64,000 nucleotides of DNA. Source: Planctomycetia bacterium. GTDB taxonomy: Bacteria; Planctomycetota; Planctomycetia; Gemmatales; HRBIN36. The notes under the pieces are model-generated. The model did not search any database. It had not been told where the DNA came from and saw only the letters and a program-made list of their open reading frames with translations. The translations under genes and the position numbers were made by a program. Numbering within the stretch: the first letter of the stretch is position 1; each line of letters starts with the position of its first letter. The stretch lies in the NCBI GenBank assembly GCA_016795155.1, contig JAEUIE010000029.1:129212-193211 (forward strand), in the 5' to 3' direction. Positions 16,001 through 51,116 of the stretch are shown one piece after another.

Positions 16001-19000
16001 TTGCCCTGAAAATCCCCCATTTCTTTGCCGCCCCGAAATGGCAACTCGAACCGGGCGAGGAATTCTCCGCGCTCTGGGGCACCGGCTACGATTCAGGCAA
16101 AGCCTACGTCGAAATTGAACATCGCCAGAACATCATTTCCAGCTTCTGGACCAGTGGCGACAAGACGCAGCAACTCATCAAACAGGCCGTTAACGAACAG
16201 ATGCGGGGCGGCTTCAATGTCCGCGTGACCTATGTCCGTGAAAACCGTGTCTACACCGAATCACGCCATGTCGATGTGCCCTGGTCGAACAAGGAGCTGA
16301 AGGTAAAGTGGGAACACTTCGTCTCGAAGCTCGAACCGGGGAAAAAGGAAACCTGGACAGCAGTCATCACCGGTCCCGATGCGAAGAAAGCTGTCGCAGA
16401 GATGGCAGCAGCCTGCTACGACGCTTCGCTTGATGCCTATCTGCCTCACCATTGGCAGCAGGCCATCAACGTTTTCTATCAGGATCGTTCCTACTGGAGC
16501 CAGCAGTTCCAGAATTATCAGTTGCAGATGCATCATTACGTCGGCATGTTCCCACACCAATACCGGTCTGGAGATTTCCGCTATCGAGCATACCCGCAGG
16601 ATATCACCGTCAACTTGTGGCAATATGGTTACCTGGAAGCCGGACAAGTCATGCGTGTTTCAAGTGGACGGATGGCACCAGGGTCGCCAGCGCCTGCAAT
16701 GCGTGCAGTTGCAGCAGGTATAGCGGAAGGCAAAGCCGATTCTGCCATGAGTTGGGGCGCCGAAAGGATGAACGAAAAATTCGACAAGCGAGTGCCAGGC
16801 GAACCTGTAGCCCCATCGGTAGGCCCAAATCTTGAAAATGTTGCTACCCGTACCAACCTCAACGAAACTGCTTTCTTCTTTCCACATCTGCTGGCTGACG
16901 AAAATGGCACGGTGAAGCTCGAATTCACGATGCCCGAAGCGCTTACCAAGTGGAAATTCATGGGCTTCGCACACGATAAGGAACTGAAGTCAGGCTATCT
17001 CGAAGATACTGTCGTCACTGCCAAAGATCTGATGGTGCAGCCCAACCCGCCTCGCTTCCTCCGCGAAGGCGACATCCTCGAATTCACCGTCAAGGTAAGC
17101 AACCAGTCTGCCACCCGTCAGGCCGGCAAAGTGCGTTTGACCCTGACCGATTCCCGCACCGGCAAATCCATTGATGCTGATCTGGGCAACAAAGACCTCG
17201 ATCAGGCATTCGATATTGCATCGAAGGAATCACGCAGCTTCTCCTGGAAGTTGTCCGTGCCCGATAACCTCGGCCCCATCACCTACAAGGCTGTCGGCGC
17301 TACCGACAGACTTTCCGATGGCGAAGAAGGCATGCTGCCGGTCCTTTCCAGACGAGTACTGGTTCAGGAATCGCTGCCTCTACCGATTCGTGGCAAACAG
17401 GACAAAATATTAAACTTCACGAAACTCCTCGAATCAGGCAAGTCGAATACCCTCCAGCATCAGTCACTCACTGTACAGATGGTTTCCAACCCATCGTGGT
17501 ATGCTGTCATGGCATTGCCTTACCTGATGGAATACCCTCACGAATGTTCCGAGCAGACCTTTAATCGCTTCTATGCCAACAGTCTGGCCAGACACATTGC
17601 CCTCTCAGATGCTCGCATCCGTAAAGTCTTCGACCAGTGGAAGAACACTCCAGCTCTCGATAGTCCGCTCGAAAAGAACCAGGACCTTAAAGCGGTGATG
17701 ATCGAGGAAACTCCCTGGCTCCGGCAGGCCAACAAGGAAAGCGAATCTCGTCGCAATGTCGGCATTCTCTTCGACGATAACCGTTTGCAGGATGAGATGA
17801 ACCGAGCGTTCCGCAAACTCTCCGAACTGCAGAACGCCACCGGCGCCTGGAGCTGGTTCCCCGGCGGTCCGGATAGCGAATACATCACGCTCTACATCAC
17901 CACCGGCTTTGGCCGCATGCGGCATTTGGGGCTGAAGCCCGATATGGCGCCAGCCCTCAAATCGCTCAACCGCCTGGACGCCTGGATGGATCGCATGTAT
18001 CGCGATATTCTCCGTCACGATGCTGCTAACAAAGACAAGAACCATCTCACCTCGACCGTGGCACTCTATCTCTATGGGCGCAGCTTTTTCGTCGAAGACC
18101 AAAAGGTGGCAGACCCGTACAAGGAAGCCTTCAACTACTGGCTGGCCCAGGCAAAAAAATACTGGTTGCAACTAGCCAACCGCCAATCGCAGGCTCACCT
18201 GGCTATAGCTCTCAAACGCTGGGGCGACAGGGAAACACCGCAAGCTATCATGAACTCGATCAAGGAACGCTCGGTCACCAATGAGGAACTGGGCCGCTTC
18301 TGGCGCGACACCGAACTCAGTTACTGGTGGTATCACGCACCCATCGAAACCCAGGCACTCATGATTGAAGCCTTTGATGAAGTGATGAACGATGCTCAGG
18401 CAGTAGAAGACTGCAAAGTCTGGTTACTTAAGCAGAAGCAGACACAAAACTGGAAGACGACCAAGTCTACCGCCGATGCCGTTTACAGCCTTCTGCTCCG
18501 AGGCGACAACCTGCTTGCATCCGATGCTTTGGTAGAAATGTCCCTGGCTGGCACTGCCATCAAGCCGGAGAAAGTGGAAGCAGGCACCGGCTTCTATGAA
18601 CAGAAGTTTGTCCGTGGCGAAGTCAAACCTGAATTCGGCAAAATCGAACTCAAGAAGACAGACGCCGGCGTTGCCTGGGGCAGCATCCACTGGCAATACC
18701 TGGAAGACATCAGCAAGGTAACACCACACGAAGGCACGCCTCTGAAACTGCAGAAGCAGTTGTTCAAACGCACCTACACCAAAAAAGGACCAGTGCTCGA
18801 AGCGGTGCAGGGGACTGTCAGCGTAGGCGATGAAATCGTCGTCCGTATCGTGCTCCGAACCGATCGCGACATGGAGTTTGTCCACATGAAGGATCATCGA
18901 GGCAGCGGCACCGAACCCACTAATGTCCTTAGCCAGTATAAGTACCAGGATGGCCTGGGATACTATGAATCAACCAAAGACACTGCCAGCCACTTCTTCA

Positions 19001-19152
19001 TCGACTACCTGCCCAAGGGTACCTATGTCTTTGAATACGCTGTTCGTGTCCAGCATCAGGGTAAATACCCTACCGGCATGGCACACATCGAATGCATGTA
19101 TGCTCCAGAGTTCAACAGCCATTCGGAAAGCATCATGCTGGAGGTGAAGTAA
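13072..19152 (+). CDS. Alpha-2-macroglobulin family protein with a thioester-type CSEQ motif
   Basis: 2026-aa ORF with an alternative start at 13105 (MRNRIILSVTLLVCLL signal anchor). Repeated MG-like beta domains. YPHECSEQTF, with CSEQ at 17545..17556, matches the CxEQ thioester motif. Confidence 0.85.
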   Translation: MLRDITFQRNTMRNRIILSVTLLVCLLGILFAWNRSIHMDQKQRDAQWAKVNDAINKGLPQSAIKEIEPIIKSAIDEKAYPEAIKAIAKKIAYEAMVQGNKPEERITRMKAEIAKAPDEMKPVMESVLAQWYWHYFLQNRWRFMQRTATAAAPSEDFTTWDLSRLFKEIDSQFTKALSHEEKLKKIPIKDYDSLIDKGTLPDSYRPTLYDFLAFDALNFYGSGELAAAKAEDAFEFEANSPVLGSREAFLTWKPDTSDADSPKLKAIQLYQKLLQIHQNDDDGSALLDADLHRLRFGFAHAFGEEKNALYKKALKQFADENKQHELSALALATLAGVYQSENKLVEAREVAIQGKNQFPQSQGGINCHNIVVAIEQPHYQVQIERVWANPLAKLHVEYKNLTRLYFRIYQADWEKQLKRNVHSHPSQMDDNQRSEMLGHKPVAEWSVDLPATEDYQQRSEEVTPPDNLPAGFYFVVACPDNRFKINGLPLTQSHFWVSDLALVLRQEHYRGRLEGFVLNSNTGEPIVGARVTPYVRNYQQNRLDVGAELTTDKNGLFQYTGPSNQPVIFLAKSNGHAISNDNEMHRQGGGQIQQAFEQVIFFTDRSLYRPGQPIRFKGIALRGDNEKLNYQTLANRTITVQFNDPNGKEISKLQLVTNQVGSFSGSFTAPRDRLMGQMMIQATGPHGSSHFNVEEYKRPKFEVTVDAPKDSPKLNDAVKLTGKAMGYSGAAVSNAKLRYRITRQVRFPAWWGYYYWWRMPPNLGAAQEIAHGTATTEPDGTFSITFTAKPDPTVAEKDEPVFTYSASVDVTDTTGETRSGSRSLQVGYTALQASLTANEWQTSSEPVKLKIGTSTIDGQGTTAKGSLKVYQLKQPEKVMRAGLFGRPSPRPIRRAPGRPQPATSTQPTPDPADPRTWELGEQVATSEFTTTDKGELESPVKLGVGIYRAMLETQDRFGKPVKAMLQFQVVDPSAIKLALKIPHFFAAPKWQLEPGEEFSALWGTGYDSGKAYVEIEHRQNIISSFWTSGDKTQQLIKQAVNEQMRGGFNVRVTYVRENRVYTESRHVDVPWSNKELKVKWEHFVSKLEPGKKETWTAVITGPDAKKAVAEMAAACYDASLDAYLPHHWQQAINVFYQDRSYWSQQFQNYQLQMHHYVGMFPHQYRSGDFRYRAYPQDITVNLWQYGYLEAGQVMRVSSGRMAPGSPAPAMRAVAAGIAEGKADSAMSWGAERMNEKFDKRVPGEPVAPSVGPNLENVATRTNLNETAFFFPHLLADENGTVKLEFTMPEALTKWKFMGFAHDKELKSGYLEDTVVTAKDLMVQPNPPRFLREGDILEFTVKVSNQSATRQAGKVRLTLTDSRTGKSIDADLGNKDLDQAFDIASKESRSFSWKLSVPDNLGPITYKAVGATDRLSDGEEGMLPVLSRRVLVQESLPLPIRGKQDKILNFTKLLESGKSNTLQHQSLTVQMVSNPSWYAVMALPYLMEYPHECSEQTFNRFYANSLARHIALSDARIRKVFDQWKNTPALDSPLEKNQDLKAVMIEETPWLRQANKESESRRNVGILFDDNRLQDEMNRAFRKLSELQNATGAWSWFPGGPDSEYITLYITTGFGRMRHLGLKPDMAPALKSLNRLDAWMDRMYRDILRHDAANKDKNHLTSTVALYLYGRSFFVEDQKVADPYKEAFNYWLAQAKKYWLQLANRQSQAHLAIALKRWGDRETPQAIMNSIKERSVTNEELGRFWRDTELSYWWYHAPIETQALMIEAFDEVMNDAQAVEDCKVWLLKQKQTQNWKTTKSTADAVYSLLLRGDNLLASDALVEMSLAGTAIKPEKVEAGTGFYEQKFVRGEVKPEFGKIELKKTDAGVAWGSIHWQYLEDISKVTPHEGTPLKLQKQLFKRTYTKKGPVLEAVQGTVSVGDEIVVRIVLRTDRDMEFVHMKDHRGSGTEPTNVLSQYKYQDGLGYYESTKDTASHFFIDYLPKGTYVFEYAVRVQHQGKYPTGMAHIECMYAPEFNSHSESIMLEVK

Positions 19153-31230: not shown

Positions 31231-32613
31231 CTATTTCCCCATCGCCCGTTTGATCGAAGCAGTCACCTCTTCCCGCAGTGTTGCAGAATAGCCTGCATGG
31301 ATGTCAACCAGTTTGCCTTGCGGATCAATCACCAGCAGCGTGGGGTAACCAAACGTACAGGTCAGCAGTGGATGGTGTTTCTCCGATTGTTTCATGACCT
31401 TGTTGAAATCAAGGTTGGGATAATTCAATTTAAACCGGCGGATAACCAATCGGGCATCCTCGGGATTTTCATCAATATTCACTCCGATTATGACCACGGG
31501 CTGATTTTTGAAGTCAGACGCCAGCTCGTTGACCTGAGGCATCGCCCGCAAGCACCACAGGCAGCCTCGGTACCAGAAATCAAGAATGACTACTTTGCCC
31601 TTGAGCGATTCCGAGGAATAGGTCTGACCTTCGAAATCCCGTGCTTCCCACGCGGGCACCGGTTTGCCGATCAGTTCTGACCAGCGTTGGGCATCCTGTG
31701 TGACCCACCGAACATAATTCTTTCCATTCTTGATGCCATTTTCCACCTGCCCCACATAGCCGGGAATGGTAAAATCCGCCTTGGCTTTTTCCCAGCGTGC
31801 AGCCATGGCTTCCATCATCTTTTTGGCTTCTTCCACTGGTTTCTGTCGTGCTGAGACATAGTTTTTCAGGTTGTCATCCTTCAAGGTGAAGTACAGATCA
31901 CTTTCCCGGATGATTTGCTGCAGCCGATCTGCCGGATGCACGTGCCGTTTCTTCAGTAGCACCGTGTAGGTTGCATTCGTGCTGGAACTGTGCTGGTAAG
32001 GCACATGATCAGGATCATCGCAGGGTTTGCGCTTGCCTGTAATCGAAGTAATGCAGCCCTGTGCAGGATCGAAGGTGTAATCGAAGGTGCCCATCGCATC
32101 GTAGATCGTAAGGATGCCGCCCGTTCGCTCTTCTCGAAACAGGTACTTATCGCCGGTGGAGGGCAGGACTGTAAACCGCGAAGTGACACTGTCGCGAGGC
32201 AGTTTCATAATCCACTCTTTTTCACCCGGGCCAGCCAGCGGTGGCAGAAGCAATGGCATGAAGGAATTCAGCGGTTCGGATTCCTGCTTCACCCGGCCAT
32301 CGGGGAAAAGATCAACTCGGCGACTTTCATGTTGGATGTTCGGTTCAGTTCCCATCTGCGAGAGAAGGACCACCTGATAACTTCCGTCCGGGTTCTTCTT
32401 CAGCACGTAAATCTGCCAGGCGGTGTGATGCTCCCTGGCCTGCTGTTTGTTCTTTTCATCCGCGGGAATCTGGTAGGTTGCCTGGTAGTTCAGTTCCAGC
32501 CCTGGTTCGAGCTTGTACTGAGGCGTTTCAACTGGAAAACTGCAGACGGCAAGCATCAGAAGGAGCATCGATATGACCCTGGCTTCCTGATAGAGGAACA
32601 ATGCATCGTACAA
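31231..32613 (-). CDS. Secreted protein with a C-terminal TlpA/redoxin-like thioredoxin-fold domain
   Basis: 460 aa. The C-terminal block is KVVILDFWYRGCLWCLRAMPQ (CxxC) followed by VIIGVNIDE. The N-terminal ~300 aa are unassigned. Confidence 0.7.
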   Translation of the reverse strand: MYDALFLYQEARVISMLLLMLAVCSFPVETPQYKLEPGLELNYQATYQIPADEKNKQQAREHHTAWQIYVLKKNPDGSYQVVLLSQMGTEPNIQHESRRVDLFPDGRVKQESEPLNSFMPLLLPPLAGPGEKEWIMKLPRDSVTSRFTVLPSTGDKYLFREERTGGILTIYDAMGTFDYTFDPAQGCITSITGKRKPCDDPDHVPYQHSSSTNATYTVLLKKRHVHPADRLQQIIRESDLYFTLKDDNLKNYVSARQKPVEEAKKMMEAMAARWEKAKADFTIPGYVGQVENGIKNGKNYVRWVTQDAQRWSELIGKPVPAWEARDFEGQTYSSESLKGKVVILDFWYRGCLWCLRAMPQVNELASDFKNQPVVIIGVNIDENPEDARLVIRRFKLNYPNLDFNKVMKQSEKHHPLLTCTFGYPTLLVIDPQGKLVDIHAGYSATLREEVTASIKRAMGK

Positions 32614-40430: not shown

Positions 40431-41693
40431 ATGTATCGACGACTTGGCTGTTGTTTTTTCTGCATGTTTTTAACAATATCAAGTGCGATGACCCAGGAAC
40501 CTGCGACCTGGCCGCAGTGGCGTGGTCCCACTCGTGATGGCATGGCTTCGGGTAACTTTACCTGGCCTGATACTCTGCAGGGCAACGTACTTGAAAAACT
40601 CTGGCGGGTTGAACTGGGGCCAAGTTACTCTGGCCCAATCATTGCTGGAGAGAAGGTCTTTATCACCGAGACACTGAATAAGAAGACCGAAACAACCCGT
40701 GCTCTCGACAGAAAAACAGGCAAGATTCTCTGGTCGCGGGAATGGGCAGGAGCCATGACGGTTCCCTTTTTTGCACGTGCCAATGGCGACTGGATTCGCA
40801 GTACACCCACCCTTGACGGTGACTCTCTCTATGTAGCTGGCATGCGCGATGTGCTGGTCTGTCTTGATGTCAACACTGGTAGCGAACGCTGGCGAGTTGA
40901 TTTTGTCAAGGAATTGAATACTCCATTGCCTGACTTCGGCTTCGTTTGTTCTCCACTCGTTGTAGGCGATCATGTTTACGTGCAGGCAGGCGGTGGCTTC
41001 GTCAAACTCGAGAAAAAAACCGGAAAAATCCTCTGGCGCACGCTCCAGGATGGCGGTGGCATGATGGGTAGCGCCTTCTCATCGCCCATCTTCTGTACGC
41101 TGAATCAAAAGCCTCAGTTGCTGGTACAGACACGTACCAAACTGGCATCGGTGGAGCCGGAGACCGGCAAAGTCAATTGGTCACAGGAAATCCCCGCTTT
41201 CCGAGGCATGAATATCCTGCCACCTACACTGGTGGGTGATGCGATCTTCACCGCGAGTCATTCAGGCGGAGCTTTTCTGTTTCGTGCCGCTGCCAGCAAC
41301 AATGCCGTTCAGGAAGTCTGGAAAAAACGATATGAAGGATACATGTCTTCACCAATCGTTATTGGTGATTACGCTTATCTGCACATGAAAAACCAGCGCT
41401 TCAGTTGCATTGATATTAAAACCGGCAATCCGACCTGGACGACCACCAAGACATTTGGCAAATACTGGAGCATGGTCGCCGCCAAGGACAAAATGCTGGC
41501 TCTCGATGAACGGGGCGATCTGCTGCTCATCAAGGCAAACCCGGAAAAGTTTGAACTGCTCGATACTCGAAAGGTATCTGAACAGGAATGCTGGGCCCAT
41601 CTGGCTGTCTGCGGTGATGAAATCTATATTCGCGATCTCCAGGGTATTACCGCCTATCGCTGGAAATCGCCTACCGCAGCAGCAAGCAAATGA
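40431..41693 (+). CDS. PQQ-like beta-propeller repeat protein (BamB-like family)
   Basis: 420 aa with a signal peptide and WPQWRGPTRDG followed by propeller repeats. It is a paralog-like relative of 25260..26492. Confidence 0.8.
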   Translation: MYRRLGCCFFCMFLTISSAMTQEPATWPQWRGPTRDGMASGNFTWPDTLQGNVLEKLWRVELGPSYSGPIIAGEKVFITETLNKKTETTRALDRKTGKILWSREWAGAMTVPFFARANGDWIRSTPTLDGDSLYVAGMRDVLVCLDVNTGSERWRVDFVKELNTPLPDFGFVCSPLVVGDHVYVQAGGGFVKLEKKTGKILWRTLQDGGGMMGSAFSSPIFCTLNQKPQLLVQTRTKLASVEPETGKVNWSQEIPAFRGMNILPPTLVGDAIFTASHSGGAFLFRAAASNNAVQEVWKKRYEGYMSSPIVIGDYAYLHMKNQRFSCIDIKTGNPTWTTTKTFGKYWSMVAAKDKMLALDERGDLLLIKANPEKFELLDTRKVSEQECWAHLAVCGDEIYIRDLQGITAYRWKSPTAAASK

Positions 41694-42607
41694 TTCGCCT
41701 GGGCTTATGCTGTTGTTTCTCTGATGAGCCTATACGCTTCTCCACGACAACTGCTGCTGCCATCAGTCGACTGGCACGCCAGGCGGCACTGGAGAAACTG
41801 GGCAATCTGGCTCTTGCTAATGCCCACTCACTGATCGCCGCTCTCAGCTATTGCAGCGAAAATGGAATCGGTTGTTTCCGTGTGCTGAGCCAGATACTTC
41901 CACTCAAAACACATCCGACACATGGTTATGAAATTGCCGATCTCCCGCAGGGCAAGGAGATCAAATTGCTGTTTCTGCAGGCTGGTGCTTTCGCAGGTAA
42001 GTTGGGCATCAGAACCTGCTTTCATCCCGATCAGTTCGTCGTTCTGAACTCGCCTAAACCCGAAGTGGTGAATGCTTCCATTCGTGAACTGGAATACCAG
42101 GCTGAAGTAGCAGAGTGGATTGGCGCTGATGTCATCAACATTCACGGCGGCGGTGCGTTTGGCGACAAGCCCAGGGCGCTCGATGCATTCGCCCAATGCC
42201 TGCAGCGACTTTCCCCTGCAGTCAGAAAACGCTTAACTCTGGAGAACGATGACAGGATCTATTCTCCTTCTGACCTTCTGCCTCTGTGTCAGTCGTATCA
42301 GATTCCACTCGTGTACGATGTTCATCACCATCGCTGTCACCCCGATAACCTACGTGTGGAGGAGGCTACCAAACAGGCGATTGCCACCTGGAATCGGGAA
42401 CCCTTGTTCCACATTTCCTCACCCTGTGAAGGATGGAAGGGACCAAAGCCACAGCGCCATCACGACTATATCAACATCAGCGATTTTCCTCGCTGCTGGC
42501 TGAAACATAACCTGACCGTTGAAGTGGAAGCCCGTGCCAAGGAGAAAGCTGTTCTGAAATTAAGCAGCCAGCTTACTGTGAGGAAAATCCAAGTCGCTAC
42601 TCACTGA
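41690..42607 (+). CDS. uvsE: UV damage endonuclease
   Basis: The N-terminus MIRLGLCC...EPIRF and TIM-barrel His/Glu pattern (NIHGGG, LENDD, DVHHH) are typical of UvdE/UvsE. Confidence 0.85.
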   Translation: MIRLGLCCCFSDEPIRFSTTTAAAISRLARQAALEKLGNLALANAHSLIAALSYCSENGIGCFRVLSQILPLKTHPTHGYEIADLPQGKEIKLLFLQAGAFAGKLGIRTCFHPDQFVVLNSPKPEVVNASIRELEYQAEVAEWIGADVINIHGGGAFGDKPRALDAFAQCLQRLSPAVRKRLTLENDDRIYSPSDLLPLCQSYQIPLVYDVHHHRCHPDNLRVEEATKQAIATWNREPLFHISSPCEGWKGPKPQRHHDYINISDFPRCWLKHNLTVEVEARAKEKAVLKLSSQLTVRKIQVATH

Positions 42608-43143
42608 CTGCGTCGCAATGCCAACATAATATCTGTTACCGTAGGGCGGTCTGACGGATCAGTACTGCGATGGGCATAGATTAACTTACGAGATCGGTCG
42701 ACGATAAAGTCGCCACCCAGTTGCAGCAAATCTTCCTGCTTCACTGGTCGCCTGATTCTCCAGCCACGGAACATGTGGGAAAAATAACTGCCGAGCACTT
42801 TGGGAGATAAGAACATCCAGACGCTGCCTGGCTGCAACCCCAGTGCCTTGTAAGTCATTCGTTCCGGGTCACATACTACAGGAAACGGCTTTGGATTATC
42901 TTCGAGCCAGACTATTAAGTTCTGTGGTTTGCTTTGCGTTACGACGATCAACTTTGCGCCGAGTGAACGAATCTCTTCCAGATGTTTCTGCACCTCGCCG
43001 AGGTGTGCCTGGCAGAGGATTCACATCAGATGGCGAAAGTATATTAGCAGAGCTGATCCGGGGGACAACTGCGATATGGTTACCTGTGTTCCATCAGGTT
43101 GATGAAATACGAGGTCAGTTACCATGTCTCCCAGTTTGATCAT
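42601..43143 (-). CDS. Peroxiredoxin-like (AhpC/TSA_2, PRXL2/SelU-like) protein; candidate selenoprotein with in-frame TGA at 43021..43023 (UxxC)
   Basis: The track shows only the C-terminal 130 aa, from GTG 42993. The same frame continues upstream through one TGA to ATG 43143. This gives MIKLGDMVTDLVFHQPDGTQVTISQLSPGSALLIYFRHLM-U-ILCQAHLGEVQKHLEEI..., where the TGA replaces the first Cys of the family's RHxxCxxC motif. Confidence 0.6.
42978..43012 (-). other. Candidate bacterial SECIS-like hairpin downstream of TGA 43021..43023
   Basis: On the minus strand the upper stem is CACCUC/GAGGUG (43005..42991) with a GGC loop, starting 15 nt after the UGA. A possible lower stem is CCAG (43012..43009) / CUGG (42981..42978). 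Confidence 0.3.
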
Positions 43144-43407: not shown

Positions 43408-43938
43408 TTATTTTCTTGGTTGCTCGGGTGCTGCATGATTCTTGCGTACTTCAGCATGCCCGTTTTTAACGAAGAGGCTTACTACATCTGCGTGAGCCTC
43501 AATCAGCCTGGCAGTAAACGGATCATCAGAAGTTTCAATCACCTTTACACCTTTTTCCGTTTTTTCCACAGACATCGTTATTTTAGAACTATTTCGAAAG
43601 ACAGCGGCGAACAGTGGATCACGCAGGTGAATGCCACGTCCTTCCTTAACGCGACGATGCATCGCTTCCACATGCTCTTTAATTTTTTCGGCAACCTGGG
43701 GCTTGGTGGATTCAGTAATTGTCTCAACGCCGTTTTTCCGTTTTGTAACATCCCGCGTAATTTCGGTGTGATGAGATAGAAGGAATTGAAAATCTTCCTG
43801 ATCTTTTTTCATCCGTTCATCTTTCCGACCTTGTCTGGGCATTCCTTCGGATGTCGGCCCTAGTGCTAGGGTCGCTGTATGAGCACCCAGGAACAGCATA
43901 CAGGTAGTCGTCACGGATAATGCCATCGTTCTTCGCAT
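43408..43938 (-). CDS. Hypothetical secreted protein, first gene of the Prx-like operon
   Basis: 176 aa with the signal peptide MRRTMALSVTTTCMLFLGAHTATLALG. Charged and His-containing, with no family assigned. Confidence 0.6.
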   Translation of the reverse strand: MRRTMALSVTTTCMLFLGAHTATLALGPTSEGMPRQGRKDERMKKDQEDFQFLLSHHTEITRDVTKRKNGVETITESTKPQVAEKIKEHVEAMHRRVKEGRGIHLRDPLFAAVFRNSSKITMSVEKTEKGVKVIETSDDPFTARLIEAHADVVSLFVKNGHAEVRKNHAAPEQPRK

Positions 43939-44091: not shown

Positions 44092-44487
44092 ATGGTAATG
44101 CGTTACCTCTGTAGTTGTGCAATCTTGTTCCTAAGTCTGACAGGTACCAGTCGAGCGGGTGATCATACCAAGGATTCTTTGCAGACCGTCAAGCAGGGAG
44201 TAGCATCCCAGAAAGCATTGCTGGTTGATGTCCGTGAAAACGATGAATGGAAAGAGGGACATATCAAGGGGGCAAAGCATCTGCCTTTATCACAACTGCA
44301 GAAGGGCGTGAATAAGGAACAACTGAAGCAGGTCCTGCCTGAAGGCAAAATCATCTATCTGTACTGTGCTGCCGGTGGTCGGTGCCTGAAAGCTGCTGAC
44401 TTGCTGAAGAAACAGGGAATAGACGTCAGAGCACTCAAGCCAGGTTACGAAGCTTTGGTTCGTGCCGGTTTTGAGAATGCACCCTAG
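44092..44487 (+). CDS. Secreted single-domain rhodanese (sulfurtransferase)
   Basis: 131 aa with a signal peptide. It has LVDVRENDEWKEGHIKGAKHLP and the active-site loop YCAAGGRC. Confidence 0.85.
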   Translation: MVMRYLCSCAILFLSLTGTSRAGDHTKDSLQTVKQGVASQKALLVDVRENDEWKEGHIKGAKHLPLSQLQKGVNKEQLKQVLPEGKIIYLYCAAGGRCLKAADLLKKQGIDVRALKPGYEALVRAGFENAP

Positions 44488-44541
44488 TATCCGGTGGGAG
44501 GTTCGGCTATGCTGATAGCGTTTCCTTCGTGATTCAGGATC

Positions 44542-45195
44542 ATGCAACTTGATCAGCCACATGCTGGTGCCACCGAATCAACCGATGAGTGCCTGTCTTT
44601 GCTCAGGCAGGCACAAACGGGTGATTTCTCGGCCTTCGGACAATTGATCAATCAATTGCAGCATCGGGTCTACGGCTTGGCCTATCGCATGCTGGGAGAA
44701 ACACATGATGCCGAAGATATCACACAGCAAACGTTCCTGAGCCTGATCGAACATCTGGATAGTTTTCGAGGCGAATCCCGCGTGAGCACCTGGGTGATGC
44801 GAATCGCTGCCAATCATGCCTTGAAGCTACTTCGTAAAAGGAGAGGTTTGCCGGTGGAGCCTTCAGGCGGCATGCCTCATCCGGAGTTTATTGCGCCCTG
44901 GCGTGAGCAACCGGGTGTGCTGGCGGAACAGGCCGAAACCAGCAAACTGATTCATGAGGCCCTGCGCGAAATCAACTCCGGCTTACGGGAAGTATTCGTG
45001 CTTCGCGATATAGAAGGATTTTCAGTGAAGGAATCAGCAGAGCTACTGGGGATCAGTGAGGCTAATGTTAAAGTTCGCCTGCTCCGAGCCAGATTGTCAC
45101 TGCGTGAACGATTGACTGCAGTTCTGGGCGATCAGGCATTGCGTGTCATACCTGATCATCAACATCATGCTGCAAACACAGGTTACGCATCATGA
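44542..45195 (+). CDS. ECF sigma factor
   Basis: Region 2 is AEDITQQTFLSLIEHLDSFRGESRVSTWVMRIAANHAL and region 4 is GFSVKESAELLGISEANVKVRLLRARL. It has a 4-nt overlap with the anti-sigma gene. Confidence 0.85.
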   Translation: MQLDQPHAGATESTDECLSLLRQAQTGDFSAFGQLINQLQHRVYGLAYRMLGETHDAEDITQQTFLSLIEHLDSFRGESRVSTWVMRIAANHALKLLRKRRGLPVEPSGGMPHPEFIAPWREQPGVLAEQAETSKLIHEALREINSGLREVFVLRDIEGFSVKESAELLGISEANVKVRLLRARLSLRERLTAVLGDQALRVIPDHQHHAANTGYAS

Positions 45196-45464
45196 ACGAG
45201 CATACACATCAAGGCATGTCCTGCGACGAGTTATTGAAAGCGCTCAATGATTATGTTGATAACGATTCGCTTTCAGCTGCCTGCCAGGCATTTGCTGAAC
45301 ATCTGGCGGGTTGTAATCCCTGTCAGATTGTCGTCGATAACATCCGAAACACCATTAAGTTGTTTCAGAATGGCAAGCCATACCCCATTCCGCCAGAATT
45401 CGCAAAACGGCTCAATGCTGCCCTGGCCAGTCGCTGGCGTGAGAAATTTCATGCAGCAAGATGA
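45192..45464 (+). CDS. Soluble zinc-binding anti-sigma factor (ZAS, RsrA-like)
   Basis: 90 aa with no TM segment. It has the HxxxCxxC motif (HLAGCNPC) plus an N-terminal Cys (MSCDELL), and it is translationally coupled to the sigma gene. Confidence 0.7.
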   Translation: MNEHTHQGMSCDELLKALNDYVDNDSLSAACQAFAEHLAGCNPCQIVVDNIRNTIKLFQNGKPYPIPPEFAKRLNAALASRWREKFHAAR

Positions 45465-45527
45465 TCTGTTCGATTGCACATATTCATCTTCAACAGTTGA
45501 TAATCAGAATCGGGAAGGGTAACAGAT

Positions 45528-45917
45528 ATGCCAGGCGAAAACAGCAACCTACTCGATGATATTCGCGTTCCCCTGGCGGCGGAACGCACCTTGCTCGCCT
45601 GGATTCGCACTGGCTTGGCCATGATGGGCTTCGGCTTCGTCGTCGCACGTTTCGGTGTATTTCTCCGCGAACTGCATCCCGCTGATCATGCCCAGCATCC
45701 GGAGTACAGCAAGTCGCTCTATATCGGTGCCGGCATGGTTATTCTGGGCATTGCCATCAACCTCCTGGCCGCCGTTGGGCACTTCAGGCTGCTGCGACGA
45801 TTGGAAAAAGGATTCACGTACAAGCCGTCACTCTTTTCACTGGTGATGGTGATTGCCCTGTGCGTTGCCATCATCGGTATCGTCATGACCGTGCATCTGC
45901 TCGGCATGACAGGCTGA
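45528..45917 (+). CDS. DUF202 (YidH-like) membrane protein
   Basis: 129 aa with LAAERTLLAWIRTGLAMMGFG and three hydrophobic segments. Confidence 0.7.
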   Translation: MPGENSNLLDDIRVPLAAERTLLAWIRTGLAMMGFGFVVARFGVFLRELHPADHAQHPEYSKSLYIGAGMVILGIAINLLAAVGHFRLLRRLEKGFTYKPSLFSLVMVIALCVAIIGIVMTVHLLGMTG

Positions 45918-45946
45918 CAACTCTAACTCTCCCGAGGGCTGTTCAC

Positions 45947-47353
45947 ATGTTTTTCCGACAACGCTTCATTCCTGGGCTGGCGATCTATTCCTACCTGATC
46001 GGCGATGAAAAGACTCGCGAATGTGCCGTCATCGACCCGGCACGTGATATCGATGCCTACTTTCAGATGGCTCACGAAGAAGGTATGCAGATCAATCACA
46101 TTCTCGAAACCCATGTTCATGCTGACTATGTTTCCGGCTCCGTCGAAGTCAAACACCGCACCGGTGGCAAAGCACAGATCCATGCCTCAGGCATGGGTGG
46201 CAAAGAATGGACACCACCCTATGCCGATCATGTGGTTAAGGATGGCGATGAAGTTGTCATGGGTTCCATTCGCATTAAAGCAATGCACACACCAGGGCAC
46301 ACACCAGAACATCTGGTCTGGCTGGTATTCGATCACACGCGCAGCCAGGATACTCCCTGGATGATGTTCTCCGGCGATTTCCTGTTTGTGGGTGATGTAG
46401 GCCGTCCCGATTTGCTCGGCGAAGAAGCCCGCAAACAACTCGCCAGCCAGCTCTACCAGAGCGTCTTCAAAACAATGCCTGCACTGGCAGACTTCACCGA
46501 GTTCTATCCTGGTCACGGTGCTGGTTCACTCTGTGGCAAAGCTCTCGGCACACGAGGCTCATCGACGCTCGGCTTCGAACGCCGTTTCAACGATGCTTTG
46601 AAAACATCGACCGAACAGGCCTGGATCAACCAGTTGCTCGAAGGCATGCCCACTGCGCCGCCTTACTTTCTCAAGATGAAAGCGGTCAATGCTGCCGGGC
46701 CGCAGGTACTGGGACACGAATGGCCCGGCCAACGCCGCTTGTCTGCCAAACAGTTTCAAATGCAGACCAGCAAAGGTGGATTGGTACTTGATCTGCGCAG
46801 CAAGGAAGCCTTTGCAGCGGCACATATTCCCAATGCCCTCAGCATTCCGCTGGCCAGTAATGTATCCTCGTGGGCAGGCTGGGTGGTCCCCTACGATCAG
46901 CCTCTGTACCTGGTGATGGAAGACATGAACAAAGTGCAGGAAGCCATCACACACCTGATCCGCATCGGGTTTGATAATATCCAAGGCACACTCGATGGTG
47001 GCATGGAAGCCTGGGAAAACGCAGGCCTGCCTGTAGCTACCTTATCCGTCCAAAGCGTTCACGATCTGCATCGACAACTGAAAAGCAAGGCTGGCGAGTT
47101 GACCGTGCTCGATGTCCGAACTCCTCGCGAATGGCAAAGCGGGCACATCGAAGGCGCACAGCACATTCATGCTGGCCTGTTGCAGAAGAATATCAATTCG
47201 ATTAATCGCAAGAAACCGGTTGCAGTGGTGTGTGGCACAGGCTACCGTGGTTCCATCGCAGGTTCCATTCTGCTTCGGGAAGGTTTGACCAACGTCACCA
47301 ATGTGCTAGGTGGCATGACAGCTTGGAAAGCTGCGGAGTTACCTGTCGTCTGA
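45947..47353 (+). CDS. MBL-fold metallo-hydrolase fused to two rhodanese domains (CstB/Blh-like persulfide dioxygenase-sulfurtransferase candidate)
   Basis: ATG 45947 (MFFRQRFIPG); the track ORF starts earlier. It has the metal motif ETHVHADYVSG and HTPGHTPEH. The C-terminal rhodanese has the active loop VVCGTGYRGS. Confidence 0.85.
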   Translation: MFFRQRFIPGLAIYSYLIGDEKTRECAVIDPARDIDAYFQMAHEEGMQINHILETHVHADYVSGSVEVKHRTGGKAQIHASGMGGKEWTPPYADHVVKDGDEVVMGSIRIKAMHTPGHTPEHLVWLVFDHTRSQDTPWMMFSGDFLFVGDVGRPDLLGEEARKQLASQLYQSVFKTMPALADFTEFYPGHGAGSLCGKALGTRGSSTLGFERRFNDALKTSTEQAWINQLLEGMPTAPPYFLKMKAVNAAGPQVLGHEWPGQRRLSAKQFQMQTSKGGLVLDLRSKEAFAAAHIPNALSIPLASNVSSWAGWVVPYDQPLYLVMEDMNKVQEAITHLIRIGFDNIQGTLDGGMEAWENAGLPVATLSVQSVHDLHRQLKSKAGELTVLDVRTPREWQSGHIEGAQHIHAGLLQKNINSINRKKPVAVVCGTGYRGSIAGSILLREGLTNVTNVLGGMTAWKAAELPVV

Positions 47354-47355
47354 AC

Positions 47356-48114
47356 TCAACTCTGCTGACTCAGGAGCTTGTTCCCTGCTTGTTCTTTCAG
47401 CATCACGCCGCTGTATTGTGCTTCACGCATGCGAATGGCCAGTTCCATGATCCGTTCAGCGGCTACTGCTGTTGGAATACCTTGGGCATGAATATTGGAT
47501 ATCAGGTTCCGCTGGGCATCGGTATGTCCTGCTTGTGGCCGGTATGCCAGGTAGGCGGAGAGAGAATCAGCATGAGCAAGCCCAGGGCGTTCGCCTATCA
47601 GCAATATTACCAATTCAGGGTTGAGTAGTCGGCCTATCTCGCTCATGATGCCTACTCTGCAGAAGCGAATGCAGAATGGTTTGCCTACTGACCAGGACAG
47701 GTCTTTTGCCTTGTCATGGAGAAGATCCAGCAGTTCAACTCCATGATGAATCACTGCTGCTGCTGATAGTCCATCCCCCAGAACAATCTGCAATGTGGGC
47801 GAGTTGGTACATTCTTTCTTGATGGTTTCTTGCGATTCGACATCGAATACCCTGCCGCGATCAGGTCGCATCAGGTATTCAGTTCGTGAACGTACCTGCG
47901 TAGTTACTCCGAACAATCCCCACCGTTGAAGACGCTCTTCGCCAATATCTCGTTTCAGATCGATGAACTGGTAAACCGCATCGCGTGCTGCAGCATGATC
48001 AGCACGCAGTTTCAATGCGGTGGCAGTTCGATATCCCAGTCCTGCACGGCCTGTGAATAACCGGGCTGAAGTGCATTGTAGCGTCTGATCAACTTCATCC
48101 AGTTCATGAGGCAT
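47356..48114 (-). CDS. eutC: Ethanolamine ammonia-lyase light subunit
   Basis: It aligns by eye with E. coli EutC (TGRAG...R, ISDGLS-like GDGLSAAAV, LLIGERPGL, ISNIH). Start chosen at ATG 48114, because the longer track ORF would overlap the permease gene by 80 nt. Confidence 0.85.
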   Translation of the reverse strand: MPHELDEVDQTLQCTSARLFTGRAGLGYRTATALKLRADHAAARDAVYQFIDLKRDIGEERLQRWGLFGVTTQVRSRTEYLMRPDRGRVFDVESQETIKKECTNSPTLQIVLGDGLSAAAVIHHGVELLDLLHDKAKDLSWSVGKPFCIRFCRVGIMSEIGRLLNPELVILLIGERPGLAHADSLSAYLAYRPQAGHTDAQRNLISNIHAQGIPTAVAAERIMELAIRMREAQYSGVMLKEQAGNKLLSQQS

Positions 48115-48130
48115 TACTTGGTTCGCGGCT

Positions 48131-49696
48131 TCATTCACTGGTTGTTCCCCTTGCTTCAACCGGCACATGTGTGGGCTCGTGAACAGCCACCTCGGCTGCA
48201 GTAATCGCATCCCGCTGTTGCTGAGTCAGTACTCCCACTGGTGGTCCGGGAAAATGATGGCGTGCAGCAAAGAACCAGTAGGCTCCCAGAAACAGCAGTA
48301 CACCGGGTACAACGATCGCTGCCTTATCATTTGGCGGCTGCATGCCAATGACGATAAGCCCGACGCACCACAAAATACTTACTAGCGCCAACGGTTTGAA
48401 CCAGCTTCCCAGATGCCAGGGGCCGAGAGTTTTCCAACGGTTACCAAGTGCGAGCATGCCAAGCACCGTGGGAAGAACATACGAAATGTAAAGGAAGATG
48501 ACACACACTGCGGTGATGGTCGAATAAATCGGTGTGTATGCCGTGAACCCGACTGCAACGGTTGCCACCAGCCAGATGGCAATTGCAGGCGTGCGAAATC
48601 GTGGCGAAACTGTGCGGATGGCTGATGAAAAGGGCAAACCACCATCACGTGCAAAGGCAAACGTCATTCTTGATGCCGAAGTTACTGTAGCCAATCCGCA
48701 TAAATATTGCGCAATCGTGATCCCGACACATAGCCAAGTTGCCAATGCAGAAGGCAACGCTTTCAAAAGCGTTCCGAAAAAGATCTTATCCCCTTGCTCA
48801 ATCGCCTGTGCTGGATCTTTCATGGCAAGAACCACAGCTATCAACATCACCCAGCCAAATAAGCCGGATACCAGCACCGAACGAACAATACCCCGAGGCA
48901 CATTTCGTGCTGCTCCAATCGTTTCTTCCGAAGCATGGGCCGATGCATCAAAGCCCGTGATGGTATATGCAGGCAACAGTAAGCCCAAGGCGAACAGCCA
49001 CAACTGCGATTCCGATTTCGGCCAGACCGGTGCATCTGCAGGCTGACCACTCATATTCGAGAAAGTAAACAGTCTGGAAACATCCCAGGTATCGCAACTG
49101 AAAAGCAGACAGGCGGTCAGTGCCAGTGAGATGATCAGTATCCAGTAGCCGCTGAAATCAGTCAGTATTCTGGTCACCCGCATGCCGAGGTGATTGAAAA
49201 CAGTCTGGGTGAGGGTGATGGCCAGGACGAGCGATAATTGAATCATGGGAGTGCAGGGCACTTCAGGCCAGAATGCTCCAAACATGAATTGAACGGTTCC
49301 AACATTAATCGCTGCCAGCACCGTGACCAGCCCAGCCAGGTTGAACCAGGCGGTCAGCCAACCCCAACCCCTTCCACCTAGAATGGCTGCCCAGTGATAG
49401 AGACCACCTGCTGTCGGGAAGGCTGATGCAATTTGACCCATGGTTAACGCCACAGCGAGCGAGAACAGACACGCCAGGGGCCAGCCAATACCTATCGCTG
49501 CTCCACCCACGCTGCCATAGCCGATATGGAATGAAGTCAGTCCGCCTGCCAGGATGCAGATGATCGACAAAGAGATTGCAAAGTTGGAAAAGCCATTCAG
49601 GCACCGCGCCAGTTCCTGAGCATATCCCAGTCGGTGCAGTATCTGAATATCCTCAGTAATTGTTGAAGAGGTCTTTTCTGGCGAAGAATTCTCCAT
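48131..49696 (-). CDS. APC-superfamily amino acid/amine permease
   Basis: 521 aa with about 12 hydrophobic segments and GQIASAFPTAGGLYHW, typical of APC permeases. It is located between eutB and eutC. Confidence 0.85.
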   Translation of the reverse strand: MENSSPEKTSSTITEDIQILHRLGYAQELARCLNGFSNFAISLSIICILAGGLTSFHIGYGSVGGAAIGIGWPLACLFSLAVALTMGQIASAFPTAGGLYHWAAILGGRGWGWLTAWFNLAGLVTVLAAINVGTVQFMFGAFWPEVPCTPMIQLSLVLAITLTQTVFNHLGMRVTRILTDFSGYWILIISLALTACLLFSCDTWDVSRLFTFSNMSGQPADAPVWPKSESQLWLFALGLLLPAYTITGFDASAHASEETIGAARNVPRGIVRSVLVSGLFGWVMLIAVVLAMKDPAQAIEQGDKIFFGTLLKALPSALATWLCVGITIAQYLCGLATVTSASRMTFAFARDGGLPFSSAIRTVSPRFRTPAIAIWLVATVAVGFTAYTPIYSTITAVCVIFLYISYVLPTVLGMLALGNRWKTLGPWHLGSWFKPLALVSILWCVGLIVIGMQPPNDKAAIVVPGVLLFLGAYWFFAARHHFPGPPVGVLTQQQRDAITAAEVAVHEPTHVPVEARGTTSE

Positions 49697-49709
49697 GCAC
49701 TTTTCCAGG

Positions 49710-51116
49710 TCAGAGTTTCAGTAATGTGTTGAACGATTGAAGTAACAACGGACGTGAATCAGTTGTCAATGGTGCCAGTCGGCCTTCTTGATAGATGCCT
49801 TGTGCTTCAAGCCAATTGTGAAATTCTGGGGCAGGCCGTAGCTGCAGCAGATCACGCACTTGCGCTGCATCATGATAACTGGTCGATTGATAATTCAACA
49901 TGATATCATCAGCACAGGGCACGCCCATGAAGTAATTGCAGCCCGCCAGCGCCAGCAGCATCATCAGGTTGTCAGCTGAGTTCTGATCTGCTTCCGCGTG
50001 ATTGGTGTAACAGACATCAACTCCCATGGGCAATCCCAGCAGTTTGCCCATGAAGTGATCTTCCAGGCCTGCCCGGATAATCTGTCTTTCATCGAACAGA
50101 TATTCAGGCCCGATAAATCCGACCACGCTGTTGACCAGAAACGGATCAAACAAGCGGGCAAGTCCATAGGCACGCGCTTCAAGCGTTAACTGATCGATGC
50201 CATGATGTGCATCAGCAGAGAGTGCGCTGCCCTGGCCGGTTTCAAAATACATCACTTGCTTGCCCAGCCAGGGGCCAGGCCTGTTTTGATGTGATTCCTG
50301 TGTACGTTGCTGCCCTTCGCGTAACATTTCCACAGTGATTCCGAAGCTTGCATTGGCGGCCTGTGTGCCCGCAATTGATTGAAAGAGCAGGTCCACCGGT
50401 GCGCCTTGCTCCAGGCATGCCAGTTGTGTTGTGATATGAGCCAGGCAGCACGCTTGTGTTGGAATGGCATAGTGAGAAATCAAGCGATCCAGTCCATGCA
50501 ATATGCTGGAAACCGTTTCTTTCGAATCAGTAGCCGGGTTGACGCCAATCACTGCATCGCCACAACCAAAGAGTAGTCCATCCAATGCTGAAAGCAGGAT
50601 TCCTTTGAGGTCATCCATGGGGTGATTGGGTTGTACACGGATACCTAGAACGCCATGCTCCCCCATCGTGTTTCGCAGGCGAGTCACGATACGAATCTTC
50701 GAGCTGACAGCAACCAGTTCCTGGTTAGACATCAACTTGGCAACAGCAGCAGCCATCTCCGGAGTAATTGCCCATGCTACCTCTTGCAGCTTCTGTGGCT
50801 CAGGGATCGATTCCAGCAGCCACTCTCGAAACTGACCCACTGTCAGGCTGCAGATTTCTGCAAAACGATTCTGATCATGGCTTTCCAGTATCAATCGAGA
50901 GACATCATCCCGATCAGGATCAATCACAGGCTGATCTGCGATTTCTTTCAGTGTTACATCCGACAAGGCACATTTGGCTGCAACTCGTTCCTGCTCGCTG
51001 CCTGCTGCCAGCCCTGCCAACTCATCGCCTGACTTGCGTTCATTGGCTTTGGCCAACAGCTCAGCGAGCGTGGCAAAGACAAACCGTTCTTGACGAACAA
51101 CATGGGAATAAGGCAT
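49710..51116 (-). CDS. eutB: Ethanolamine ammonia-lyase heavy subunit
   Basis: 468 aa, with size and sequence character matching EutB (FATLAELLAKANERKSGDELAG..., MGVDVCYTNH). Confidence 0.9.
   Translation of the reverse strand: MPYSHVVRQERFVFATLAELLAKANERKSGDELAGLAAGSEQERVAAKCALSDVTLKEIADQPVIDPDRDDVSRLILESHDQNRFAEICSLTVGQFREWLLESIPEPQKLQEVAWAITPEMAAAVAKLMSNQELVAVSSKIRIVTRLRNTMGEHGVLGIRVQPNHPMDDLKGILLSALDGLLFGCGDAVIGVNPATDSKETVSSILHGLDRLISHYAIPTQACCLAHITTQLACLEQGAPVDLLFQSIAGTQAANASFGITVEMLREGQQRTQESHQNRPGPWLGKQVMYFETGQGSALSADAHHGIDQLTLEARAYGLARLFDPFLVNSVVGFIGPEYLFDERQIIRAGLEDHFMGKLLGLPMGVDVCYTNHAEADQNSADNLMMLLALAGCNYFMGVPCADDIMLNYQSTSYHDAAQVRDLLQLRPAPEFHNWLEAQGIYQEGRLAPLTTDSRPLLLQSFNTLLKL

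Follow-up and report, generated by a model that had tools for sequence, protein, structure and literature searches.

Bacterial selenocysteine (Sec) proteins that resemble peroxiredoxins (Prx) and carry a UxxC redox box, the so-called Prx-like selenoproteins, were described by Zhang, Fomenko and Gladyshev in 2005 (PMC1088965) and by Zhang and Gladyshev in 2008 (PMC2398784), are defined as a class in PMC4989117 and were also included in a 2026 review of prokaryotic selenoproteomes. The published families stem mostly from marine metagenomes and Deltaproteobacteria. For the eukaryotic protein SelL, the passages in PMC4989117 and PMC3316567 that cite Shchedrina et al. 2007 give two Sec residues in a UxxU motif that forms a diselenide, and a single Sec insertion sequence (SECIS) in the 3'-untranslated region (3'-UTR) of the transcript. 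We analysed a 64-kb stretch of DNA from a Planctomycetia bacterium (contig JAEUIE010000029.1; below 'the window', to which all unlabelled coordinates refer) and found on its minus strand, at 43143..42601, what is very probably a UxxC Prx-like selenoprotein gene that standard gene callers truncate to a 130-residue fragment without the active site. Like the bacterial Prx-like selenoproteins, its product would combine a Prx-like thioredoxin fold with a thioredoxin-type box in place of T/S-x-x-C in which the first Cys has become Sec, Cys homologs exist, and the UGA is followed, still within the open reading frame (ORF), by a small hairpin that has a G in its apical loop. It differs from them in its hosts, which are concentrated in the Planctomycetota of the Gemmatales and Isosphaerales, with metagenome-assembled genomes (MAGs) from soil and freshwater, and in an AhpC-TSA_2 module at the C-terminus, in which a QLGGDF motif is invariant.

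The standard list of ORFs contains for this gene only 42601..42993 (minus strand, 130 aa, GTG start), which is without any CxxC-type motif; the 130-aa fragment has the protein accession MBL8823256.1. Translation of the minus strand over 42601..43143 yields one frame with a single internal stop: 40 codons (MIKLGDMVTDLVFHQPDGTQVTISQLSPGSALLIYFRHLM), a TGA at 43023..43021, and then ILCQAHLGEV..., the latter being the beginning of the 139 codons that follow the TGA. The full coding sequence comprises 180 codons, including that of Sec41, plus the terminal TGA at 42603..42601. The ATG at 43141..43143 is the proposed true start; the M-I-K-L-G-D that it opens matches the N-termini of full-length homologs, in which the upstream frame is likewise open and conserved. 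The segment that standard annotation omits on this strand (residues 2-40; 43024..43140) holds the central beta-strand LLIYFRHLM, which leads to the active site, and is followed by the redox box U41-I-L-C44 (TGA ATC CTC TGC; 43012..43023), the first codon of which (43021..43023) is the proposed Sec codon. The GTG that ORF callers use as start (42991..42993) is at the same time the codon of Val51 and the final three bases of the hairpin stem discussed below. In these respects the original prediction was reproduced to the base: the annotated ORF lacks a redox motif, the frame runs open to the ATG at 43143..43141 with no other stop, and the 40 codons, the TGA and ILCQAHLGEV join the ORF as it had stated.

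To compare the codon at the site between genomes, one genome per GTDB species was scanned, which gave 80 loci with tblastn matches spanning residues 1-180; almost all of these derived from Planctomycetota, mainly Gemmatales, Gemmataceae and Isosphaeraceae, and a few from MAGs labelled Bacillota, Dehalococcoidia or Acidimicrobiales. The site was readable in 78 loci, including the window (two other loci were frameshifted and one was cut by the end of a contig), and the codon was TGA in 76 of them and TGC in 2. When loci from metagenomes were added, 83 sites could be read, mostly from Gemmatales Planctomycetota: 78 with TGA (the window among them; hereafter the Sec forms) and 5 Cys forms (TGC/TGT). 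The internal stop was TGA in all 78 Sec forms and never TAA or TAG, whereas the same 78 genes are terminated by TGA (42), TAA (19) and TAG (17); under these terminator frequencies the chance of finding only TGA at the internal position is about 1e-21. As the original prediction had expected, Cys or Sec aligns at residue 41, and where it is Cys (P0007, P0012, P0015, L035 and L075) it is the first Cys of a CxxC.

None of the 78 Sec forms has a stop within the 30 codons that precede the TGA, the strand LLxIFLRHLx is strongly conserved among them, and 72% of the upstream residues that are identical to those of the window are encoded by different codons. Judged from this pattern of substitutions, selection at the protein level acts on the coding sequence that precedes the TGA. 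These data bear directly on the idea that the gene is a nonsense pseudogene or a sequencing error, in which a TGC or TGT was mutated to or miscalled as TGA in one strain. A single base change would suffice for this, Cys forms do exist and the related loci L032 and L071 are frameshifted, but the same codon is TGA in 76 of the 78 species-level genomes at only 34-59% protein identity, the upstream frame has stayed open and conserved while its synonymous sites diverged, and the internal stop is never TAA or TAG. The distribution that a lone mutation predicts, TGC or TGT in the relatives and TGA in one strain alone, is thus not what the 78 species-representative loci display, and we consider the probability of this explanation negligible. 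The frameshifts in L032 and L071 themselves (around 3000-3540) lie after the N-terminal part and before the QLGGDF motif; one of the two loci comes from a nanopore-based assembly, and they may be assembly errors or true pseudogenes.

The truncation recurs throughout the public records. Among 5.8 billion proteins searched, 99 homologs were found; about 90 of these are 120-145 aa long and cover only ~72% of the query, from which we conclude that they were cut at the same place. Only five calls are full-length: three have CxxC (P0007, P0012 and P0015), and two, made by JGI, have Trp in the column of the TGA (P0003 and P0011). The DNA underlying the latter reads TGA (L084 247-249 and L085 800-802), and the Trp is therefore an artefact of the gene caller. 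NCBI already names several homologs 'SelL-related redox protein'; the records P0027 and P0032, which bear this name, are themselves truncated (140-145 aa) and leave the Sec codon unannotated. That public records, those named after the NCBIfam family included, are truncated or have Trp at the site is modestly new.

The same annotations are what speaks for a second explanation, namely that translation truly begins at GTG 42993 and yields the 130-aa protein, perhaps next to a separate upstream small ORF of 40 codons, and that the TGA is a true stop: this model is given by gene callers and by NCBI, JGI and Logan annotation for ~90% of the homologs, and GTG is a legal start. Such a protein would, however, lack strands 1-3 of the thioredoxin fold together with its entire redox box, whereas the 40 residues at the N-terminus can be aligned both to Prx-fold proteins and to the full-length Cys homologs. 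Moreover, its GTG is the conserved Val codon of HLGEV, the 'starts' of the homologs vary arbitrarily (M-x-C, V-A-H, M-Q-Q), and a true stop would have drifted among TGA, TAA and TAG. We hold this explanation to be very improbable, and the reading of the TGA as a Sec codon is retained in the following.

The family was assigned with profile searches on the 180-aa product, with residue 41 written as Cys. The AhpC-TSA_2 domain that had been named from the sequence was recovered by Pfam (PF13911; E = 5e-18, 65.9 bits against a gathering threshold of 27, residues 54-160), next to AhpC-TSA (4e-13, residues 5-104) and Redoxin. AhpC-TSA_2 is a domain that PRXL2/SelU-type proteins also possess, and the original prediction had named PRXL2 (SelU) as the family. 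The nearest curated family is NCBIfam NF040769, 'SelL-related redox protein' (161.3 bits against a cutoff of 120), in which residues 9-173 of the readthrough protein match positions 4-170 of the 173 in the profile (165 of the 173 positions are matched), and the corresponding class in the literature is 'Prx-like'; the name 'SelL-related redox protein' itself was not found in the literature searched. A SelL-type UxxU motif is absent: the window has U-I-L-C, and Cys is found at +3 in all 78 Sec forms. What the window gene shares with SelL, as far as the passages on SelL cited above describe it, is a Prx-like product whose redox box is of the thioredoxin type and would contain Sec; it differs by having UxxC and a bacterial-type hairpin within the ORF, instead of UxxU and a SECIS in the 3'-UTR.

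Searching the sequences of the PDB gave no close relative (top match E = 0.0035), but two alignments locate the redox box. In that with the thioredoxin-like protein 2ls5, U-I-L-C falls on the box WCGVC, and in that with AhpE of M. tuberculosis (T-G-I-C), the conserved Thr is matched by residue 41 and the peroxidatic Cys by Cys44. An AlphaFold2 model was made for the full-length Cys homolog P0007, which is 49% identical to the window protein (predicted local distance difference score, pLDDT, 93.6; predicted template modelling score, pTM, 0.88). Its Sec-equivalent Cys42 is situated between a strand (32-36) and a helix (43-54), the strand directly preceding the CxxC helix, so in this model the Sec-equivalent position is the classical CxxC site of the thioredoxin fold. 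Foldseek placed the BCP/PrxQ peroxiredoxins as the closest solved folds (template modelling score 0.65-0.80, 14-18% identity).

The overall fold, and the position of Cys44 on the peroxidatic Cys of AhpE, are therefore what the protein has in common with the canonical and Sec-containing peroxiredoxins (AhpC/TSA, BCP/PrxQ and AhpE; TxxC or TxxU), and the low identity to the solved Prx structures and the position of Sec41 at the Thr of T-x-x-C are what sets it apart. The conserved T/S-x-x-C of canonical peroxiredoxins is absent, the position of the Thr being held by Sec, or by Cys in homologs, and because Sec41 occupies this position the catalytic layout is thioredoxin-like (CxxC). Such a replacement of T/S-x-x-C by C/U-x-x-C within a Prx-type fold is what characterizes the Prx-like class. 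The original prediction had put the TGA at the catalytic Cys of a peroxiredoxin-like gene; this holds in so far as the position is that of the first Cys of a thioredoxin-type CxxC, while the canonical peroxidatic Cys of the peroxiredoxins corresponds to C44.

A SECIS-type hairpin follows the TGA at a distance of 15 nt (42991..43005, minus strand). It consists of the stem CACCUC (43005..43000), the loop GGC (42999..42997) and the stem GAGGUG (42996..42991), has a core of 15 nt with a folding energy of -6.7 kcal/mol, and encodes H47-L-G-E-V51. The hairpin had been predicted at exactly this place, and we found it to be conserved as RNA, with compensatory changes in homologs; a possible lower stem CCAG/CUGG that had been proposed along with it fared differently, as all 4 pairs are in register in only 8 of 76 homologs and this stem is not conserved. 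SECIS elements of the E. coli fdhF type are hairpins within the ORF, located soon after the UGA and with a G in the apical loop, by which a UGA for Sec is told from a UGA for stop on the same mRNA. The window element resembles these in its position shortly after the UGA within the ORF and in the G of its apical loop, but it is much shorter (a 6-7 bp stem with a 3-nt loop, starting 15 nt after the UGA) and without an evident bulged U, and binding of SelB to it is a prediction.

Conservation of the hairpin by itself proves little, as it overlies the conserved peptide H-L-G-E-V, and three comparisons were made that separate the RNA from the peptide. First, the synonymous choice in the four stem codons was compared with that for these amino acids in the remainder of the genes: i) Leu is CTC in 66 of 75 cases (background 28%, p 1e-27); ii) Val is GTG in 74 of 76 (36%, p 4e-30); iii) Glu is GAG in 65 of 66 (50%, p 8e-19); and iv) His is CAC in 71 of 78 (59%, p 2e-10). 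A decaying gene would not maintain a base-paired hairpin through such biased synonymous codons, which is a further argument against the pseudogene discussed above. Second, covariation was determined in a gap-free alignment of the 78 Sec forms (A2; 76 distinct sequences) for the helix formed by columns 18-24 and 28-34 (7 bp). In this helix 93.2% of the cells are paired, against 35-59% when the 3' strand is slid, and the covariation score amounts to 0.179, against 0.062 ± 0.010 for shuffled alignments (none of 500 shuffles reached the score) and at most 0.069 for the slid controls.

The individual changes are in line with this. The innermost pair goes from C-G to G-C in 5 sequences (CUG...CAG); pair 21-31 is U-G in 5 sequences and U-A in 1 (L085, a double change from C-G to U-A); and the closing (7th) pair, between the wobble base of the preceding Ala codon and the first base of the following codon, is C-G in 29, G-C in 26, U-A in 4 and A-U in 1. 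The closing pair swaps freely and is therefore unexplained by constraint on the protein. The loops of the homologs read GGN or GUN, such that a triloop starting with G caps a helix of 6-7 bp. Third, among the five Cys forms the hairpin is broken or absent in four and kept in L035 only, and HLGEV is replaced in the same four (HVAEV in L081 and L082, HLSDL in L083 and HLVDV in L075). In the Sec forms it may be the RNA, and not the protein, that keeps HLGEV conserved. A compact SECIS written into a conserved peptide with clean covariation, as these alignments suggest, is modestly new.

The conserved hairpin, with its loop starting with G and at the distance of a SECIS, is also a hallmark of SelB-dependent decoding, and this matters for a third explanation. 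The UGA could be read through as Cys or Trp, by near-cognate or suppressor decoding, or the genome could recently have lost its Sec machinery and the gene be heading for conversion or decay; that no such machinery was recognized in the window and that JGI calls two homologs W at the site would fit. Those W calls, however, are artefacts on short contigs, and TGA is an ordinary stop in the window, which leaves no room for genetic code 4 or 25. A global reassignment of TGA under these codes, considered because of the W calls, was in fact ruled out, as TGA ends 22 of the 40 long open frames in the window and also the selenoprotein gene itself (42603..42601). With respect to a recent loss, Gemmata obscuriglobus and Isosphaera pallida have been reported to carry full sets of Sec-insertion genes (PMC4807772), and in the window neither the TGA nor the hairpin is damaged. 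We assign only a slight probability to this third explanation. The TGA form is concentrated in the clades of G. obscuriglobus and I. pallida, and, as an indirect argument, the TGA, the hairpin and the upstream frame would not have been kept intact in a genome that had no machinery; selA, selB, selC and selD are thus probably present in the source genome.

Several observations weigh against decoding of the UGA as Sec. ARAGORN found no tRNA-Sec, and indeed no tRNA, in the window (nor a tRNA-Sec in 60 homologous loci), and no SelA, SelB or SelD was recognized by NCBIfam among ten size-matched ORFs of the window. No second selenoprotein gene turned up in the window: the unfiltered scan for such genes returned noise, and the motif-filtered scan left the gene at 43143..42601 as the only clean thioredoxin-type site in a real coding frame. 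The Prx-like class has been described as never experimentally characterized (PMC4989117). Further points concern the hairpin, which is short (-6.7 kcal/mol), has an A.C mismatch in the window at the 7th, covarying pair, and matches no relevant Rfam family at either gathering or permissive thresholds. RNAalifold predicts no consensus structure, though 93% of the cells pair by explicit count, and the local fold of the window sequence (42960..43030) is not significantly more stable than that of shuffled sequences (z = -1.15); the case for the hairpin thus rests on the comparative data. These in turn are partly confounded with the conserved peptide HLGEV, and the counts of cells overstate the number of independent events because the sequences are phylogenetically related.

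Taken with the alignment to Cys forms, the conservation of the TGA, the hairpin and the selection on the upstream segment, which together support the original prediction of a Sec-decoded UxxC peroxiredoxin-like gene cut short by ORF calling, the following scheme can be proposed. The UGA at 43023..43021 would be read as Sec and not as stop, the hairpin 15 nt downstream, inside the coding sequence, acting as a bacterial SECIS that recruits SelB-GTP and Sec-tRNA(Sec) to the ribosome; the terminal UGA (42603..42601), which is without such a hairpin, would serve as the stop. In the protein, Sec41 would lie where helix 1 begins, which in a thioredoxin-type CxxC is the position of the attacking residue, and Sec41 and Cys44 would most likely cycle between the selenolate/thiol state and a Se-S (selenenylsulfide) bond, the pair reducing a disulfide or a peroxide-type substrate.

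The sequence comparisons indicate that the subfamily is almost entirely Sec-encoding across the Gemmatales, which is again modestly new. A more far-reaching proposal is that of a Gemmatales-centred subfamily that is almost obligately Sec-dependent (~94% of the 83 sites, most of them from species-level genomes, are TGA, in largely aerobic soil and freshwater Planctomycetota), has its SECIS in the codons of H-L-G-E-V and conserves this peptide mainly because of the RNA; we regard it as possible yet doubtful. If it were true, the subfamily would provide a clean natural example of an RNA element that dictates protein sequence, most public Gemmatales proteomes would miss a selenoprotein, and the use of Sec in the phylum would be under-counted. 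The finding is chiefly a matter of annotation, whose correction would return a redox-active selenoprotein to many Planctomycetota proteomes and mark the genomes as Sec users. A well-sampled compact SECIS with covariation would be useful for the training of bacterial SECIS predictors, and the cultured carriers Gemmata algarum JC673 and Gemmata sp. IIL30 offer organisms in which the Prx-like class could be studied. Knowledge of Sec decoding and of the selenoprotein families as such is unchanged, UxxC Prx-like proteins having been known since 2005 and a curated NCBI hidden Markov model being available for the subfamily.

The genomic neighbourhood gave few indications on function. Clustering of conserved neighbours, which was contaminated by spurious antisense ORFs of the high-GC genomes, brought forward only a di-haem cytochrome c peroxidase (11 loci) and an extracytoplasmic function (ECF) sigma factor (5 loci), too weak a signal for the assignment of a pathway. 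The peroxidase gene (CCP_MauG, 5e-50) is co-directional and is found ~0.5 kb downstream in 11 of about 80 loci (e.g. L049, 3640-5389), the window not being one of them, and hints weakly at a peroxide-related role. The ECF sigma factor occurs near the homolog in 4 loci besides the window. In the window it belongs to a cluster upstream on the opposite strand (44092-47353, plus) that is apparently tied to sulfur or redox stress and contains: a rhodanese, the ECF sigma factor (44542-45195), a zf-HC2 anti-sigma factor (45192-45464), a membrane protein of the DUF202 family and, at 45860-47353, a protein that combines a metallo-beta-lactamase fold with two rhodanese domains, all on the plus strand. 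A scan for sigma-70 promoters upstream of the selenoprotein gene gave no match, the sigma-70 model being uninformative for Planctomycetota.

Closer to the gene, a UV-damage endonuclease gene (Pfam UvdE, 4.8e-63; 41690-42607, plus) is convergent with it, the two 3' ends overlapping by 7 nt (42601-42607), and an ORF of 176 aa (43408-43938, minus), which begins much like a signal peptide and matches nothing in Pfam, lies 264 nt upstream on the same strand. Farther away the window contains the ethanolamine ammonia-lyase genes eutC and eutB (47356-51116, minus), a giant ORF of 2026 aa (13072-19152, plus) and a gene for a protein of 460 aa whose C-terminal part is a ResA/TlpA-like thioredoxin domain (31231-32613, minus).

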